64,000 nucleotides of DNA from Escherichia coli. GTDB lineage: Bacteria; Pseudomonadota; Gammaproteobacteria; Enterobacterales; Enterobacteriaceae. Below the pieces are notes generated by a model. That model worked only from the letters and a program-made list of their open reading frames with translations. It made no database searches and was not told where the DNA came from. Positions 8,960-53,421 of this stretch are shown in pieces; within the stretch, counting starts at the first letter, position 1, and every line of letters begins with the position of its first letter. The position numbers and the translations under genes were made by a program. Location of the stretch: the NCBI RefSeq assembly GCF_002854065.1, contig NZ_CP024153.1. One strand, written 5' to 3'.

Positions 8960-9399
8960 AGAATTGAGTTGAACGAGTGGTTACATCTAGGCCAGCTAAC
9001 TCACTGAACGTAAAGGCTGTACGAAATGTTCCGACCGTCCGATAACCATTTGGCTTACTTCCGTACATTTCCTTGCGTAGATGTACAGAATTGTACGATT
9101 TCGGACACCAAAACTGCTGTTGTCACGGTGCATGAAGCCACTTTCCGGGTTGGTGGTACTGACTTTGGTGTTCTTAACGACGACGTTTTCAACTCTGAAA
9201 ATCGCCTCTCTGCACGGGGGTTTTTACCCCCCCATAGAGCCGTCATATAAATTCAAATTATTAACTTTGATGGTAGAATTATCTTAGGTTTGATAAAATT
9301 TTGAGCCGTCGCCGTTTACTTCACAGGATTCAATATAATGGCTAAATATACAGTTTGTGATTACCAATCAACTATTAGGGGGCACCTCAGAAAACGGAA

Positions 9400-10726
9400 T
9401 CTATGGTCACTCCCGTTTTTGCAACACCGATTTTGACGATAAATTGGCTTGCTTGAATCTATCCGGCGTCTGAATGGGATTTTATTCCCGCGCCTCGATG
9501 AGTTCCGCGCCTGATGAACCTCCAGAAAATATACGGCTTCAATGAGCCTTTCCGTTTTACAGGTTCCTCAACAGGCCGGTGGGCCGTTAGTATCATCAAT
9601 ATCAGTATTCGCAAAACCAGATCAGTGATTCTTTAAACCGGTGTATTTCTGCCGTTATGCTACATAAGTTTGCTGTCGTGCCGTTAGGGCCCAGGCTATT
9701 CTGGCCAGCTTGTTTGCCAGAGCACAAGTGACGACAAAGTTGCTTTTCCTACACAGTAGATCCCTGACCCAATCGGCCAATTTGCCAGACTGGTGTTCCA
9801 GTTTTTGTATGAATACCCTGGCACATTGAACCAACAAAGTTCGGATCTTTTTGTTACCTCGCTTACTAATTCCCAGCAATGTCGTCCGACCTCCCGTGCT
9901 GTACTGTCGAGGCACTAGCCCTGTTGCCGCCGCAAAGTCACGACTGCTGGCGTACTGCTTCCCGTCGCCAATCTCAGTTGAAATAGTACTCGCTGTCAGT
10001 GTTCCGACGCAGGGAATGCTCAGCAAGCGCTGTCCAATCTCATCTTCGTCCAACTTTCGTTTCAACTGGGATTCCAAATCTTTAATCTGCTCAACAAGAT
10101 AGTGATAATGCTGTTGTAATTTCAGCAATAACTGGCTGAGGTATAGAGGCAAACTATTGTCCTCAAGAAGGGTACTCAGTCGGCTAATAACGGCAGCTCC
10201 TCGTGGAACGCTGATGCCAAATTCCAGCAGAAAAGCATGCATCTGATTGGTTGTTTTTACCTTATCCTGAACCAGGGATTCACGGACACGATGCAGCGCA
10301 CGCATTGCCTGCTGAGATTCAGTTCTGGGCTGTACAAAACGCATAGACGGACGCGATGCAGCTTCACAAATAGCTTCGGCGTCGACAAAGTCGTTTTTGT
10401 TACTTTTAACGAATGGACGGACAAATTGTGGTGATATCAGCTTAGGAAAATGCCCCAACTCTTCCAACTTGCGTGCCATAAAGTGAGAGCCACCACAGGC
10501 TTCCATTGCGATGGTTGTAGCGGGGCATGTCGCCAAAAATTCGATTAACTTTGGCCGTGTAAATTTTTTACGGTAAACAGCCTTGCCGCGACGATCTTGG
10601 CAATGAATATGGAAAGAGTTTTTACCCAGATCGATACCAATGAGCGCAATGTTTTCCATGATAGTTCTCCGAATGAAAGCCTATCCTCAGCATAGTACCG
10701 GGAAGGAGGGAGTGACCATCTCATTA
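9400..10726 (-). mobile_element. IS5075/IS4321-like (IS110 family) inserted in Tn21 IRmer
   Basis: 1327-bp element at the IR position these ISs target; second copy at 50461-51787. Confidence 0.85.
9655..10659 (-). CDS. IS110-family transposase (IS5075-type)
   Basis: 334-aa MENIALIGIDLGKNSFHIHCQD... DEDD-type N-terminus. Confidence 0.85.
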   Translation of the reverse strand: MENIALIGIDLGKNSFHIHCQDRRGKAVYRKKFTRPKLIEFLATCPATTIAMEACGGSHFMARKLEELGHFPKLISPQFVRPFVKSNKNDFVDAEAICEAASRPSMRFVQPRTESQQAMRALHRVRESLVQDKVKTTNQMHAFLLEFGISVPRGAAVISRLSTLLEDNSLPLYLSQLLLKLQQHYHYLVEQIKDLESQLKRKLDEDEIGQRLLSIPCVGTLTASTISTEIGDGKQYASSRDFAAATGLVPRQYSTGGRTTLLGISKRGNKKIRTLLVQCARVFIQKLEHQSGKLADWVRDLLCRKSNFVVTCALANKLARIAWALTARQQTYVA

Positions 10727-10737
10727 AATAAAGCACG

Positions 10738-11172
10738 CTAAGGCATAGCTGACCTTGCCAGGCCTGCTTCGCCCTGTAGTGACGCGATCAACGGGCAGGA
10801 AACATTCCCCTTTCGTGCATGGCAGGCGCACACGAGTTCAGACAGCACGGTTTCCATGCGCGCCAAGTCGGCCATCTTCTCGCGCACGTCCTTGAGCTTG
10901 TGTTCGGCCAGGCTGCTGGCCTCCTCGCAGTGGGTGCCATCGTCGAGCCGCAACAGCTCGGCAATCTCGTCCAGACTGAACCCCAGCCGCTGTGCCGATT
11001 TCACGAATTTCACCCGAACCACGTCCGCCTCCCCATAGCGGCGGATGCTGCCGTAAGGCTTGTCCGGTTCCCGCAACAGGCCCTTGCGCTGATAGAAGCG
11101 GATTGTCTCCACGTTGACCCCGGCCGCCTTGGCAAAAACGCCAATGGTCAGGTTTTCCAAATTATTTTCCAT
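10738..11172 (-). CDS. merR: MerR mercury-responsive regulator
   Basis: 144 aa [33 protein letters not shown]...; divergent from merT. Confidence 0.95.
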
Positions 11173-47648: not shown

Positions 47649-48470
47649 GGCACTGTTGCAAAGTTAGCGATGAGGCAGCCTTTTGTCTTATTCAAAGGCC
47701 TTACATTTCAAAAACTCTGCTTACCAGGCGCATTTCGCCCAGGGGATCACCATAATAAAATGCTGAGGCCTGGCCTTTGCGTAGTGCACGCATCACCTCA
47801 ATACCTTTGATGGTGGCGTAAGCCGTCTTCATGGATTTAAATCCCAGCGTGGCGTTGATTATCCGTTTCAGTTTGCCATGATCGCATTCAATCACGTTGT
47901 TCCGGTACTTAATCTGTCGGTGTTCAACGTCAGACGGGCACCGGCCTTCGCGTTTTGAGCAGAGCAAGCGCGCGACCATAGGCGGGCGCTTTATCCGTGT
48001 TGATGAATCGTGGGAATCTGCCACTTCTTCACGTTGTTGAGGATTTTACCCAGAAACCGGTATGCAGCTTTGCTGTTACGACGGGAGGAGAGATAAAAAT
48101 CGACAGTGCGGCCCCGGCTGTCGACGGCCCGGTACAGATACGCCCAGCGGCCATTGACCTTCACGTAGGTTTCATCCATGTGCCACGGGCAAAGATCGGA
48201 AGGGTTACGCCAGTACCAGCGCAGCCGTTTTTCCATTTCAGGCGCATAACGCTGAACCCAGCGGTAAATCGTGGAGTGATCGACATTCACTCCGCGTTCA
48301 GCCAGCATCTCCTGCAGCTCACGGTAACTGATGCCGTATTTGCAGTACCAGCGTACGGCCCACAGAATGATGTCACGCTGAAAATGCCGGCCTTTGAATG
48401 GGTTCATGTGCAGCTCCATCAGCAAAAGGGGATGATAAGTTTATCACCACCGACTATTTGCAACAGTGCC
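47649..48470 (-). mobile_element. IS26 copy E with frameshifted transposase (1-bp insertion); N184 variant
   Basis: tnp split into ORFs 47991-48425 and 47701-48024; extra a in gggaatctgcc versus gggatctgcc in other copies; RIINATLG. Confidence 0.9.
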
Positions 48471-48586
48471 TAAAAATCGACCATACAGAGAGGGAAACCA
48501 CCGGAGTGGTGGGAAAAGCAGAAAGGCTCACGTGGCATAAGGCGTGGACAATGGTATCGACTGGTTTTTCAATTTCCTATACGTGA
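48471..48586 (+). mobile_element. IS1294-like terminal fragment (tnp-distal end only, about 116 bp)
   Basis: Identical to 1495-1610; ends ...cctatacgt followed by gaac. Confidence 0.85.
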
Positions 48587-48673
48587 ACTATTGAAGTAAT
48601 CAATCAAATTTTATAGGCTGATAGCCAAGTAACAACCACCAATGATATGCCAGGTAAAATCAGGGGACGTAAA

Positions 48674-50110
48674 ATGAGTACTCTTGATGTTCAGAAGCTC
48701 AAGGATGATGCCGTCGAATGGGCCTTAACTCATGGTGTTGCTTTCAAGGAATCGTCGTATTCCGCAGTGCATACCCCGTTTACCCTGACACCAACACCTA
48801 TCAGCCGTAAATCCTATCAGTACTTAAAGAATGCAACAGGAATACTCAGCAAATTAATCTATTCAGTTTCTGAGGATCATGATTTTTTGTACTCTGCGAT
48901 TTATCCCATCAAGGCCGGGAATGCCTTCTTTTCAGCCCTCCTGAACATGCATCAACAAATCCATTCATCATCAAGGCATGCTCCTCGATTACCATTACTC
49001 ATTATGCGTAGCGACTTTATGGATGATAATCGTGATGGGTTCAGGCTTATAGAGTTCAATGGTATAGCTGCAGGAATGGGGCCGTTTGGTCAGCGGATAC
49101 ATGATCTGCATCACTATCTACAACGGCAATATCCCGCTGTCTTTTCTGATTTATCGAATCAGGCAACAGGGGCGCTTGTCGACAATCAAGCGATCGAAGG
49201 GTTATCAGCAGCGATTTGTCAGGCAACTTGCAGAATTAAGCAGGAGTTCGGAGACCCCGGCCCTGCCAGGTTCCTGATGATTGTGCAGGAGAATGAAAAT
49301 AATGTGTTTGATCAACACTTGCTTGAGCTCGCCCTCCAGCAAAAAGGAATCGAAACGCATCGCAGGACTTTTCGTGAACTGCATAATCAATTGAGTACAG
49401 GCGCCGACAACAGGCTCATTCTCGAGGGTGTAGGCCCACTTGATACCGTCTACTTACGTGCCGGATATCAGTATTCTGATTATGAAGCATTCAATATCGA
49501 TGAGCAGGAGTGTTGTCAGGCGCTGATGGCGACCCGAGTATTCATTGAGCAGCACCGGGTTGCAGTGAACGCCACAGTTGGCCAGCAACTGGCGACCAGC
49601 AAGCGAGTACAAATGCTGCTCTCGCAATTGGGTTACGACGAGTTTGTCGCATTTGGATTAACACTGCAGGAAGCTAAAATAGCAAAAACGATACTGGGTG
49701 AGATGTTACCCATCAGCCCGGATAGTATCAACCTTGCAAAAGAGTCTCCTTCGGAAACCTGGGTTCTCAAAAATCAGGGTGAAGGCGGGGGGCATTGTCT
49801 GTTTGGTGCGGATATCCTGACAAAACTGACGGAACTCACTCCACAACAATATCAGTCCTGGTCGCTGATGCGCCGTTTACACCCTCAGCCCCGAGCTATG
49901 CCCACCTTGATTGTGCGTAAAGGGGAGTTGCATAAGGTGAATGATTTGATAAGCGAACTTGGAATGTTCTCCGTGCAGACAGATAACAATCCCTCCAGTG
50001 CTGAGCACAGTTTTGCTGGATATCTAATTCGTAGCAAATCAGCTGAATCGACAGAGGGAGGGGTCCATAGTGGACAAGGTGTTTTAGACTCGCTGGTATA
50101 CAGCGATTAG
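48674..50110 (+). CDS. Eukaryotic-type glutathione synthetase homologue (ATP-grasp)
   Basis: MRSDFM, IEFNGIAAGMGPFGQR, VFDQHLLELAL...IETHRRTFREL, YLRAGYQYSDY, WVLKNQGEGGGHCLFG glycine-rich loop; alternative upstream ATG at 48647. Confidence 0.75.
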   Translation: MSTLDVQKLKDDAVEWALTHGVAFKESSYSAVHTPFTLTPTPISRKSYQYLKNATGILSKLIYSVSEDHDFLYSAIYPIKAGNAFFSALLNMHQQIHSSSRHAPRLPLLIMRSDFMDDNRDGFRLIEFNGIAAGMGPFGQRIHDLHHYLQRQYPAVFSDLSNQATGALVDNQAIEGLSAAICQATCRIKQEFGDPGPARFLMIVQENENNVFDQHLLELALQQKGIETHRRTFRELHNQLSTGADNRLILEGVGPLDTVYLRAGYQYSDYEAFNIDEQECCQALMATRVFIEQHRVAVNATVGQQLATSKRVQMLLSQLGYDEFVAFGLTLQEAKIAKTILGEMLPISPDSINLAKESPSETWVLKNQGEGGGHCLFGADILTKLTELTPQQYQSWSLMRRLHPQPRAMPTLIVRKGELHKVNDLISELGMFSVQTDNNPSSAEHSFAGYLIRSKSAESTEGGVHSGQGVLDSLVYSD

Positions 50111-50460
50111 TCCCTTTCAAGGGGGCTGAAATCTGGTTATATGAAAGCATGCGGTAAGTGGTGTTTTAGCCCCAGTGGAGATGATGCTGTTTCTAGACTG
50201 AGTCGTAGTAAGCTAATAATAGTATTATAAATGAAGCCATGAGGGTATTTACAGGGCATATCTTATTAAGGGAACAACAGCAAAAACTGCTGCTATAAGA
50301 GGCTGCACCCAAAGTTCTTCAAGGTTCACATCATCGCTGCTGGGTCGATGCTGTTTCAGTTACGGGTCAATTTTCAATACCATTAGCTGTTCCTGTGACT
50401 ACGGTCATTACGCGCTGTCGACATCAATTTGTACAGCAAACAGTCTTAGCGTGGGATATT

Positions 50461-51787
50461 TAATGAGATGGTCACTCCCTCCTTCCCGGTACTATGCTGA
50501 GGATAGGCTTTCATTCGGAGAACTATCATGGAAAACATTGCGCTCATTGGTATCGATCTGGGTAAAAACTCTTTCCATATTCATTGCCAAGATCGTCGCG
50601 GCAAGGCTGTTTACCGTAAAAAATTTACACGGCCAAAGTTAATCGAATTTTTGGCGACATGCCCCGCTACAACCATCGCAATGGAAGCCTGTGGTGGCTC
50701 TCACTTTATGGCACGCAAGTTGGAAGAGTTGGGGCATTTTCCTAAGCTGATATCACCACAATTTGTCCGTCCATTCGTTAAAAGTAACAAAAACGACTTT
50801 GTCGACGCCGAAGCTATTTGTGAAGCTGCATCGCGTCCGTCTATGCGTTTTGTACAGCCCAGAACTGAATCTCAGCAGGCAATGCGTGCGCTGCATCGTG
50901 TCCGTGAATCCCTGGTTCAGGATAAGGTAAAAACAACCAATCAGATGCATGCTTTTCTGCTGGAATTTGGCATCAGCGTTCCACGAGGAGCTGCCGTTAT
51001 TAGCCGACTGAGTACCCTTCTTGAGGACAATAGTTTGCCTCTATACCTCAGCCAGTTATTGCTGAAATTACAACAGCATTATCACTATCTTGTTGAGCAG
51101 ATTAAAGATTTGGAATCCCAGTTGAAACGAAAGTTGGACGAAGATGAGATTGGACAGCGCTTGCTGAGCATTCCCTGCGTCGGAACACTGACAGCGAGTA
51201 CTATTTCAACTGAGATTGGCGACGGGAAGCAGTACGCCAGCAGTCGTGACTTTGCGGCGGCAACAGGGCTAGTGCCTCGACAGTACAGCACGGGAGGTCG
51301 GACGACATTGCTGGGAATTAGTAAGCGAGGTAACAAAAAGATCCGAACTTTGTTGGTTCAATGTGCCAGGGTATTCATACAAAAACTGGAACACCAGTCT
51401 GGCAAATTGGCCGATTGGGTCAGGGATCTACTGTGTAGGAAAAGCAACTTTGTCGTCACTTGTGCTCTGGCAAACAAGCTGGCCAGAATAGCCTGGGCCC
51501 TAACGGCACGACAGCAAACTTATGTAGCATAACGGCAGAAATACACCGGTTTAAAGAATCACTGATCTGGTTTTGCGAATACTGATATTGATGATACTAA
51601 CGGCCCACCGGCCTGTTGAGGAACCTGTAAAACGGAAAGGCTCATTGAAGCCGTATATTTTCTGGAGGTTCATCAGGCGCGGAACTCATCGAGGCGCGGG
51701 AATAAAATCCCATTCAGACGCCGGATAGATTCAAGCAAGCCAATTTATCGTCAAAATCGGTGTTGCAAAAACGGGAGTGACCATAGA
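50461..51787 (+). mobile_element. IS5075/IS4321-like copy 2, inserted in a Tn3-family 38-bp IR
   Basis: 1327 bp; flanks reconstitute IR ggggtccgcttggaaaacgga|IS|aaatatcccacgctaag; tnp 50528-51532. Confidence 0.85.
50528..51532 (+). CDS. IS110-family transposase (IS5075-type)
   Basis: Identical 334-aa protein to 9655-10659. Confidence 0.85.
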   Translation: MENIALIGIDLGKNSFHIHCQDRRGKAVYRKKFTRPKLIEFLATCPATTIAMEACGGSHFMARKLEELGHFPKLISPQFVRPFVKSNKNDFVDAEAICEAASRPSMRFVQPRTESQQAMRALHRVRESLVQDKVKTTNQMHAFLLEFGISVPRGAAVISRLSTLLEDNSLPLYLSQLLLKLQQHYHYLVEQIKDLESQLKRKLDEDEIGQRLLSIPCVGTLTASTISTEIGDGKQYASSRDFAAATGLVPRQYSTGGRTTLLGISKRGNKKIRTLLVQCARVFIQKLEHQSGKLADWVRDLLCRKSNFVVTCALANKLARIAWALTARQQTYVA

Positions 51788-51919
51788 TTCCGTTTTCCAA
51801 GCGGACCCCGTGCTGTGTGGAAATCCGCCCACCTTGCCGGGCGCCGGTGCTGTGTGGAAATTCGCCCATCTTCATGACAAAAATTTGTCAAATGACAGGC
51901 TCATGTGTGCTGATTTATG

Positions 51920-52601
51920 TCAGACGGGATTTTGCTTATCAATTATTGAGAACAGAAATTTTCCTGAATCATCAATACTATACTTAGCAAGTAAAGGTGT
52001 TTTCTCATTTATCTGCTTGAGAGCAGGATCAAGGAAAGATCGTTTCAACTCTGCCAAGTTCTTCTGTTGGGATTCCGGCAAAAGGAAACGGTCATTTAAC
52101 CAAGCATGAGTAGTAACCCATAAGCCTGAAGATTTGAATTGAGCAAGACTTTCATAAAGGCGGATCGTCCGTGGATTTCGAAGACTGCCACAATCGCGGA
52201 GCGAGTAGGTGGTGAACTGGTTCGTCAGGCCGTAAATGTACCGCAGGAGTTTATGGTTAAATTCGATTTCCCAGATACCACGAGCTGATCGGCTGCCAGC
52301 CTCTGTTAGCCAGGGGCGCGCGACGCAGTCAAAACTCCCTTCTTTCGGGTAAAAGATTACCGCAGAACGGCTTAACTCAAACACGCCTTCTTTAACATCC
52401 TTGATAGCCTGGTTACGGCTTACCTGAAAAATTTGCTGATAGTCAGCCACCTTTACTTTGAAAGTAGAGTCACCGAGTACAGCCATCTCATCATCATCTT
52501 CGCTTACTGAAGCTGTGAAATACGTCTGCATAAGACATAACCAGAGAACGCGCTTTGCTTTTAGCGAGAGGTAGTAAGCAGCTTCGGTAAGCTCGTTAGA
52601 C
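51920..52601 (-). pseudogene. Rep_3-family (RepE-like) replication initiator, 5'-truncated by IS26
   Basis: ...[23 protein letters not shown]... (parallels Rep[22 protein letters not shown]); frame enters IS26 right end. Confidence 0.65.
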
Positions 52602-53421
52602 GGCACTGTTGCAAAGTTAGCGATGAGGCAGCCTTTTGTCTTATTCAAAGGCCTTACATTTCAAAAACTCTGCTTACCAGGCGCATTTCGCCCAGGGGAT
52701 CACCATAATAAAATGCTGAGGCCTGGCCTTTGCGTAGTGCACGCATCACCTCAATACCTTTGATGGTGGCGTAAGCCGTCTTCATGGATTTAAATCCCAG
52801 CGTGGCGTTGATTATCCGTTTCAGTTTGCCATGATCGCATTCAATCACGTTGTTCCGGTACTTAATCTGTCGGTGTTCAACGTCAGACGGGCACCGGCCT
52901 TCGCGTTTGAGCAGAGCAAGCGCGCGACCATAGGCGGGCGCTTTATCCGTGTTGATGAATCGTGGGATCTGCCACTTCTTCACGTTGTTGAGGATTTTAC
53001 CCAGAAACCGGTATGCAGCTTTGCTGTTACGACGGGAGGAGAGATAAAAATCGACAGTGCGGCCCCGGCTGTCGACGGCCCGGTACAGATACGCCCAGCG
53101 GCCATTGACCTTCACGTAGGTTTCATCCATGTGCCACGGGCAAAGATCGGAAGGGTTACGCCAGTACCAGCGCAGCCGTTTTTCCATTTCAGGCGCATAA
53201 CGCTGAACCCAGCGGTAAATCGTGGAGTGATCGACATTCACTCCGCGTTCAGCCAGCATCTCCTGCAGCTCACGGTAACTGATGCCGTATTTGCAGTACC
53301 AGCGTACGGCCCACAGAATGATGTCACGCTGAAAATGCCGGCCTTTGAATGGGTTCATGTGCAGCTCCATCAGCAAAAGGGGATGATAAGTTTATCACCA
53401 CCGACTATTTGCAACAGTGCC
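52602..53421 (-). mobile_element. IS26 copy F (N184 variant)
   Basis: 820 bp; tnp26 52654-53358; RIINATLG. Confidence 0.95.

Follow-up and report, generated by a model that had tools for sequence, protein, structure and literature searches.

A eukaryotic-type glutathione synthetase homologue, intact on Escherichia coli plasmids, comes from the end of a Tn3-family arsenic-resistance transposon

Introduction

Why should a multiresistance plasmid of Escherichia coli carry a homologue of eukaryotic-type glutathione synthetase (GS), and where did the gene come from? Such a gene lies in a 64,000-nucleotide stretch of contig NZ_CP024153.1 (assembly GCF_002854065.1; this whole stretch is hereafter "the window"), between a remnant of IS1294 on its left and an IS5075/IS4321-type element on its right. 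We report here that the gene belongs to the cargo of a Tn3-family transposon for arsenic resistance, in which it comes last, and that the window keeps only the final ~1.9 kb of this element. The "IncN gshB segment" of plasmids is the stump of this transposon, which is widespread in Enterobacteriaceae. The origin ties livestock-associated plasmids to arsenic exposure, and raises the question whether such elements bring along a glutathione supply of their own or instead produce some other compound.

The gene and its place on plasmids have already been annotated and published as gshB; the arsenic-transposon origin is what is added here. A structure "ΔrepA-iterons-gshB-ΔIS1294" has been described, with "114 bp of the oriIS end of IS1294" and an optional insertion of IS5075/IS4321 in the gshB segment; in those reports the gene is part of an IncN segment, the target of IS5075 is merely similar to the Tn21 repeat, and function was not addressed experimentally (PMC6052338, PMC6288184). 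The "gshB" IncN1 segment of plasmids pHNFP460-1, pHN6DS2 and pABWA45_3 was 100% identical to the window over 48440-50470, with the same junction between IS26 and the 114 bp of IS1294. Some of those gshB plasmids share the IS5075/IS4321 insertion, and the window differs by the loss of five 37-bp iterons.

In the PLSDB collection, 297 plasmids matched the 2-kb segment with at least 80% coverage, and in the best 30 of these it was 100% identical and annotated "glutathione synthase". A search with the protein found 351 PLSDB plasmids, although 43 of the 351 copies covered less than 80% of the gene, some being visibly truncated. The gene was also present in 172 of 5426 complete E. coli genomes, nearly always on plasmids.

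Results

The gene encodes an intact eukaryotic-type glutathione synthetase homologue

An unbroken open reading frame (ORF) of 487 amino acids (aa) runs from 48647 to 50110 on the plus strand. When the upstream region was aligned with five homologous loci, the conserved start was the ATG at 48674, which is preceded by GGGGA, a plausible ribosome-binding site. With the stop at 50110 this gives a protein of 478 aa, with the same start as RefSeq WP_000105383.1 ("glutathione synthase").

A preliminary description of the locus, made from the letters alone, had pointed to sequence motifs of eukaryotic-type glutathione synthetases in this protein. The motifs VLKNQGEGGG, RSDFM and RRTFRE are indeed present in the 487-aa translation, and the assignment was borne out by family, structure and fold matches. 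A Pfam scan reported PF03917 (GSH_synth_ATP; E = 9.7e-61, residues 15-484) and PF03199 (GSH_synthase; E = 4.3e-19), while glutathione synthetases of known structure from potato, human, soybean and yeast were matched over their full length (E = 1e-36 to 1e-41), at 24-26% identity to the eukaryotic enzymes. An AlphaFold model built on 40 homologues had a mean predicted local distance difference test score of 86, and superimposed on 2HGS and 3KAL with a template-modelling (TM) score of about 0.85 (Foldseek E about 1e-33). The fold is shared, with TM about 0.85, with human GSS (2HGS), potato StGSS1 (5OES) and yeast Gsh2 (1M0W).

Membership of the prokaryotic GshB family was rejected, because the Pfam and NCBIfam scans reported eukaryotic-type models only and no prokaryotic-type GshB model for the window protein. 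Prokaryotic GshB of the E. coli type belongs to a different sequence family; it is also an ATP-grasp enzyme, and would catalyze the same reaction as the window protein if the annotation of the latter is right. The ratio of nonsynonymous to synonymous substitution rates, calculated against four homologues, was 0.08-0.13, so that the gene lineage has evolved as a working protein. Within the family of eukaryotic-type glutathione synthetases, the product of the ORF is intact and belongs to a gammaproteobacterial branch.

The gene is the last cargo gene of an arsenic-resistance transposon

Scanning metagenome contigs for an exact match to 36 bp from just upstream of the gene yielded three contigs. 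Contigs L099 and L100 carried window positions 48585-50461 at 99.9% identity, without IS1294, IS26 or IS5075. In both, the 38-bp repeat that IS5075 splits in the window was unbroken, and a divergent gene for a 123-aa protein of the ArsR family began 16 bp to the left of the GAAC at which the IS1294 remnant ends in the window. The two contigs were 99.9% identical to each other over 7.5 kb and then diverged exactly at the outer CCCC of the repeat.

Six loci had one and the same gene order. On one strand were genes for ArsH, a sigma factor of the extracytoplasmic function (ECF) type, ArsD, ArsA and an ArsN-like acetyltransferase; on the other were genes for ArsC (glutaredoxin type), ArsB, ArsA, ArsD, ArsR, a low-molecular-weight (LMW) phosphatase, a protein tyrosine phosphatase (PTP), a second LMW phosphatase and a second ArsR. 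After this last ArsR came the divergent GS gene and then the repeat. The right flanks of the six loci were all different, one being a pyruvate kinase-lpp-suf region and another a nar operon; with the window counted, there were at least eight distinct right flanks.

To the left of the sigma-factor gene lay a resolvase gene (tnpR), a gene for a 994-aa Tn3-type transposase (tnpA) and a second, inverted copy of the repeat, identical at 37 of 38 positions (the two repeats are at L112 1268-1305 and L109 11772-11809). One 2-Mb metagenome scaffold held both ends, 20,513 bp apart (L112 1268 to L109 11809), flanked by a 5-bp target duplication, AAGAA. When the element and one AAGAA were removed in silico, the flanks closed into an open frame of 282 codons, an N-acetyltransferase gene (Pfam Acetyltransf_2). 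Because this 20,513-bp copy includes a 3.8-kb IS26-bounded insertion in its resolvase gene, the basic element would be about 16.7 kb. The earlier proposal that the gene is cargo of a Tn3-family element thus holds for intact copies with tnpA, tnpR, two 38-bp repeats and a target duplication.

Beyond the first 38 bp the two terminal repeats go on matching, although less well, up to about 81 bp (37 of 38 positions, then 36 of 48), which explains why 50397-50444 in the window reads like the last 15 codons of tnpA. We considered whether these 48 bp inside the repeat were a leftover 3' end of tnpA, in which case the gene might not be cargo at all; this was rejected because intact copies show the ~81-bp repeat at both ends, with the gene between them.

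The transposon shares with Tn5393, which has 81-bp repeats, and with the Tn21 subgroup 38-bp repeats of the form GGGG...ACGCTAAG, a tnpA that ends in the repeat, a resolvase and a 5-bp duplication. The repeat also serves as a target for IS5075/IS4321 in Tn21-type transposons and in the arsenic transposon alike. Unlike Tn5393 and Tn21, however, the arsenic transposon carries as cargo a double ars cluster of ~11 kb and the GS gene. We found no name or description of it in the searchable literature. Every copy seen had IS26 in or beside the resolvase gene, and none was free of IS26. In plasmid pENT01 of Enterobacter sp. R4-368 the tnpA was 100% identical but the surroundings were rearranged by IS26, and no ars or GS gene was present in the region examined. 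No species-representative genome had a copy closer than 78%, so that none of them stood out as the original donor.

The GS protein of L099 and L100 differed from that of the window by Y153C, and was found in 4972 index blocks of the assembly collection, on contigs that were often hundreds of kilobases long. Residue 153 (codon at window 49131) is Tyr in the window and in IncN-linked plasmids, and Cys in intact transposon copies and in a plasmid lineage linked to strAB. Since the residue is mostly Trp, Tyr or Phe in homologues, the widespread Cys153 form may be the derived one.

Boundaries of the segment and origin of the stump

The features of the segment are listed in Table 1. Both boundaries were as previously proposed: on the left the 114-bp end of IS1294 (48471-48584) is followed directly by GAAC (48585-48588), and on the right a 1327-bp element splits a 38-bp Tn3-type repeat. 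The window contains a second IS5075/IS4321-type copy (9390-10742), 99.8% identical to the first, which has inserted into the repeat on the mer side of a Tn21-like transposon; the insertion point was defined by comparison with this copy. The first copy divides CTTAGCGTGGGATATTT from TCCGTTTTCCAAGCGGACCCC at the same position at which the second divides the Tn21 repeat beside mer. The 38-bp repeat matched the Tn21 repeat at 29 of 38 positions, GGGG and ACGCTAAG included, and differed at a single one of its 38 positions from the repeat at the tnpA end of the parent transposon; IS5075 is found at this segment because the end of the segment is the terminus of a Tn3-family transposon. The transposase of the inserted element is three residues away from a RefSeq "IS4321" protein and six from an "IS5075" protein.

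Table 1. Features of the GS segment and its borders (window coordinates)
Feature	Position	Strand	Remarks
IS26	47649..48470	-	Left edge of segment; 2-bp indel splits transposase frame
IS1294 oriIS-end remnant, 114 bp, cut by IS26	48471..48584		Identical to ends of three other IS1294 copies in the window
Native arsR-GS intergenic region, 89 bp	48585..48673	+	Begins with GAAC (IS1294 target)
Eukaryotic-type glutathione synthetase homologue, 478 aa	48674..50110	+	In-frame ATG at 48647 would give 487 aa
Transposon non-coding 3' region	50111..50396		Unchanged in intact copies; no homologue in other ars loci
Subterminal part of extended terminal repeat	50397..50444		36/48 match to tnpA-side end
Inner 17 bp of 38-bp Tn3-family inverted repeat (CTTAGCGTGGGATATTT)	50445..50461
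IS5075/IS4321-type element, 1327 bp	50462..51788	+	Transposase 50528-51532; sits inside repeat
Outer 21 bp of inverted repeat (TCCGTTTTCCAAGCGGACCCC), transposon end	51789..51809		Flanks diverge here in at least 7 other insertion sites
IncN entry site of transposon	51810..52648	-	~1.7 copies of 37-bp iteron, then repA (51920-52648) truncated by IS26

For the non-coding region 3' of the gene, no homologue was found outside the transposon itself. The transposon repeat adjoins the first IncN iteron directly, and the ~1.7 iteron copies at 51810-51900 compare with 6.7 in pABWA45_3, a loss of 185 bp (5 units). The IS26 at the left edge differs by its 2-bp indel from the six other copies in the window, so that its transposase is split into ORFs of 144 and 107 aa; whether genuine damage or a fault in the assembly, either could account for this.

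The junctions suggest four steps. The transposon would first have entered an IncN plasmid beside the iterons; IS1294 would then have targeted GAAC, only 16 bp away from where the divergent arsR begins; IS26 would have deleted everything leftward except 114 bp of IS1294; and IS5075 would finally have landed in the terminal repeat. No plasmid with a complete IS1294 beside the gene was found in PLSDB. Other plasmid lineages of E. coli carry independent truncations that leave the GS gene whole, with IS26 lying 26 bp to the left of GAAC or ISEc52 lying inside arsR. In those lineages (CP019905 and CP048824, our loci L117 and L118, and loci L104-L106 and L108) the repeat is followed by strA-strB and not by IncN iterons.

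Close homologues are linked to arsenic genes in unrelated genomes

A scan of one genome per species, covering 100,044 species, gave 190 stretches that encode a relative. The Salmonella homologue, which lies in a genomic island, was 80% identical; those of Aeromonas and Yersinia reached 77-78% and those of Shewanella 64-67%, and a band of 50-58% took in Grimontia, Vibrio, Photobacterium, Ferrimonas, Endozoicomonas and other genera. We scored 80 species-representative loci by tblastn for ars proteins encoded in 10-kb flanks. All eight loci of at least 63% identity, including that of Shewanella sp. ANA-3, contained a full ars cluster. One or more core ars genes lay nearby in 9 of the 13 loci at 60% identity or above, but in only 2 of 20, 1 of 26 and 1 of 21 loci in the lower bands, while an ArsR-like gene stayed near the GS gene in several loci of 55-62% identity.

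The Salmonella, Aeromonas, Shewanella and Yersinia homologues were in ars, arr or chr clusters. In Salmonella, a divergent unit of arsR, LMW phosphatase and PTP, together with arsRDAB and a molybdoenzyme, was near the GS gene. In A. tecta the GS gene followed arsRRDA-PTP-gapdh-arsJ-acr3-arsC on the same strand, whereas A. allosaccharophila had arsC, a sigma factor, GS, an ArsP-type permease and an ArsE-type thioredoxin. S. putrefaciens had permease-GS-arsB-arsC, and in Yersinia a divergent chrA-padR pair was followed by GS-permease-thioredoxin, within an island bounded by an integrase. For close homologues, therefore, linkage to arsR, arsC, arsB/acr3, arsA and arsD recurred in unrelated genomes. 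Because the members of 50-58% identity sit in ordinary surroundings, the arsenic link is confined to one sub-clade and does not extend to the whole family. A "glutathione synthetase" is coloured in a published figure of Shewanella and Aeromonas ars/arr modules, its function uncommented (PMC6429310). In the searchable literature we found no experiment on induction of the GS gene by arsenic, or on its contribution to arsenic tolerance.

The ECF-type sigma factor recurred in ars clusters (L012 9221-10004; L101 30-575), its best NCBIfam match being SigZ, below the cut-off. In A. allosaccharophila a 64-aa ORF was all that separated it from the GS gene downstream. This factor might be required by the GS gene. 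Defence genes of the CBASS type (a SMODS cyclase with SAVED, or HORMA/AAA, plus Cap2 and JAB) adjoined the Salmonella arsenic island (L002 11595-16522), and such genes were also present beside one transposon insertion (L101 15585-19090).

The donor pocket is canonical and the acceptor loops are not

We aligned 118 bacterial homologues (51-100% identity) with the human and potato sequences, using human numbering and the residue criteria of Lilley et al. (PMC5919673). For Mg binding, E144, N146 and E368 were invariant (117 or 118 of the 118), as were K305, K364, E425 and K452 for ATP binding and the arginines R125 and R450. All of the glutamate-binding residues of the γ-Glu-Cys pocket (E214, N216, Q220, R267 and Y270) were also kept, so that the window protein has the Mg and ATP ligands, the two arginines and the dipeptide pocket in common with the eukaryotic enzymes. 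Two serines whose backbone contacts cysteine were replaced by Ala (S149A) and Gly (S151G), both of which are small and allowed by the criteria. Other proteins of the same fold have diverged and are considered to act on new substrates; in these the glutamate half of the pocket is gone, whereas the window protein keeps the pocket complete. Judged by these residues, the donor is almost certainly γ-Glu-Cys.

By contrast, the bacterial family has substitutions of its own in the two loops of the glycine site. The Gly-rich loop shows R367G, N372H, N373C and Y375F and the Ala-rich loop A462H and A463S, all of them invariant or nearly so. The glycine-site pattern of the curated NCBIfam model TIGR01986 ("glut_syn_euk") is Ala-Ala with Asn-Asn/Tyr, whereas the window protein has His-Ser (its residues 465-466), His-Cys (374-375) and Phe, and it scored 236.4 bits against this model, below the curated cut-off of 329.8. 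Because both loops differ from those of the eukaryotic enzymes, glycine may not be the acceptor.

An enzyme of the same fold, using the same γ-Glu-Cys donor with another acceptor, might then make, in place of glutathione, an analogue γ-Glu-Cys-X or some other thiol peptide that binds or handles arsenic. The conservation, complete or nearly so, of the His-Cys and His-Ser loops across the 118 homologues would fit this, as would the subthreshold TIGR01986 score and the fact that the hosts already own a prokaryotic-type GshB. There is also a precedent: soybean homoglutathione synthetase (3KAJ/3KAL), which has the same fold and whose structure 3KAL ranks with the closest structural matches, likewise lacks Ala-Ala in its Ala-rich loop, although with Leu-Pro in place of His-Ser, and changes at these two Ala positions switch its acceptor from glycine to β-alanine (PMC5919673). 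However, nematode enzymes that lack the Ala pair still favour glycine (PMC5919673), so that the loop signature is not decisive. Moreover, the whole dipeptide pocket is canonical, and no unusual thiol is known from these bacteria. On balance we regard a different product as unlikely.

A broader form of the idea is that the branch with His-Cys and His-Ser either uses another acceptor for γ-Glu-Cys or responds to arsenite through a new cluster of His and Cys residues at the lid of the active site; we judge this quite unlikely. If either were true, ars elements would own a dedicated thiol, and such an enzyme, minus its regulator, would be spreading on hundreds of livestock-associated multiresistance plasmids.

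Control region and proposed function

In intact copies the GS gene and the arsR-led operon diverge across an intergenic region of 104 bp. The 89 bp of this that are kept on the plasmid are 80% identical to the Salmonella locus, and contain a leftward promoter-like site and a dyad, ATTGAAGTAATCAAT, which is a candidate operator. The 123-aa ArsR has a C-terminal CC...C motif, which we take to resemble the arsenite site of the Acidithiobacillus-type ArsR.

These features suggest how the native element might work. Arsenite would release an ArsR-type repressor from the divergent promoters, derepressing transcription in both directions, and the enzyme would ligate γ-Glu-Cys and glycine with ATP to give glutathione. 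The glutathione would in turn sustain the glutathione/glutaredoxin-dependent ArsC of the same element, and arsenic-thiol chemistry generally. The plasmid copy would be an orphan passenger in an IS26-bounded block, without the regulator and ars partners, and would probably change little in E. coli. With the window stripped of ars genes, a GshB already present in E. coli and GshA normally the limiting enzyme, little phenotype would be expected. Taking the genomic context and residues together, we consider it probable that the gene encodes an intact glutathione synthetase of an arsenic transposon, arsenic-inducible in its native setting and an orphan passenger on the plasmid.

Several observations weigh against this view. 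Both glycine-site loops depart from those of the eukaryotic enzymes (NN to HC, AA to HS, and Y375F), and the TIGR01986 score is below its cut-off. The members of the family at 50-58% identity lie in ordinary chromosomal neighbourhoods. No strong σ70 promoter was predicted on the strand of the gene, a scan giving nothing above shuffled background, and we found no report of activity, expression or phenotype for any bacterial member in the searchable literature. Finally, GshA rather than GshB is usually rate-limiting for glutathione, and an ars element has no evident need of the synthetase.

The promoter result bears on whether the plasmid gene is expressed at all. It could be a silent relic, intact but unexpressed: the remaining 89 bp hold no convincing σ70 promoter, the ECF-type sigma factor of the native element and of the Aeromonas cluster might be needed, and the transposase of the flanking IS26 is transcribed away from the gene. 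On the other hand, all of the native intergenic DNA from GAAC to the gene has been kept, a plausible ribosome-binding site precedes the conserved start, and loss of the repressor would favour expression. We think silence doubtful, although worth keeping in view; judging from what remains upstream, expression on the plasmid could be constitutive, weak or absent.

The preliminary description had suggested that the gene might influence thiol-dependent detoxification, for example of fosfomycin by FosA-type enzymes, or of metals or oxidants, or that its product might have a different substrate. Gene context supports the part concerning metal(loid)s, and specifically arsenic, and a different substrate may yet apply, given the glycine-site loops; the FosA part found no support, since a FosA3 query sequence had no match in the window and E. 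coli has its own GshB. Nevertheless, the gene might be kept on multiresistance plasmids because it is beneficial, supplying glutathione to FosA-type enzymes or protecting against oxidants or metals. Its presence on 351 PLSDB plasmids and in 172 complete E. coli genomes could be read in this way, as could the at least three independent truncations of the transposon that left it whole, and published plasmids have the segment beside a fosA3 module. However, a terminal gene next to the repeat would be spared by leftward deletions through its position alone, and 43 of the 351 plasmid copies fall short of 80% coverage. Nor do the copies, being near-identical, give a signal of selection, while GshA is in any case limiting. 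Maintenance for benefit therefore seems to us very unlikely, and we regard the plasmid gene as a passenger spared by its terminal position.

Beyond the left border of the segment, between cassettes of the dfrA12-aadA2 type and IS26, lies an island of low GC content (34-39%; window 46000-47600). Judging by eye from the translations, we take two of its ORFs to be pyridoxamine-phosphate-oxidase-like (46463-46855) and bleomycin-binding-protein-like (47175-47552, minus strand).

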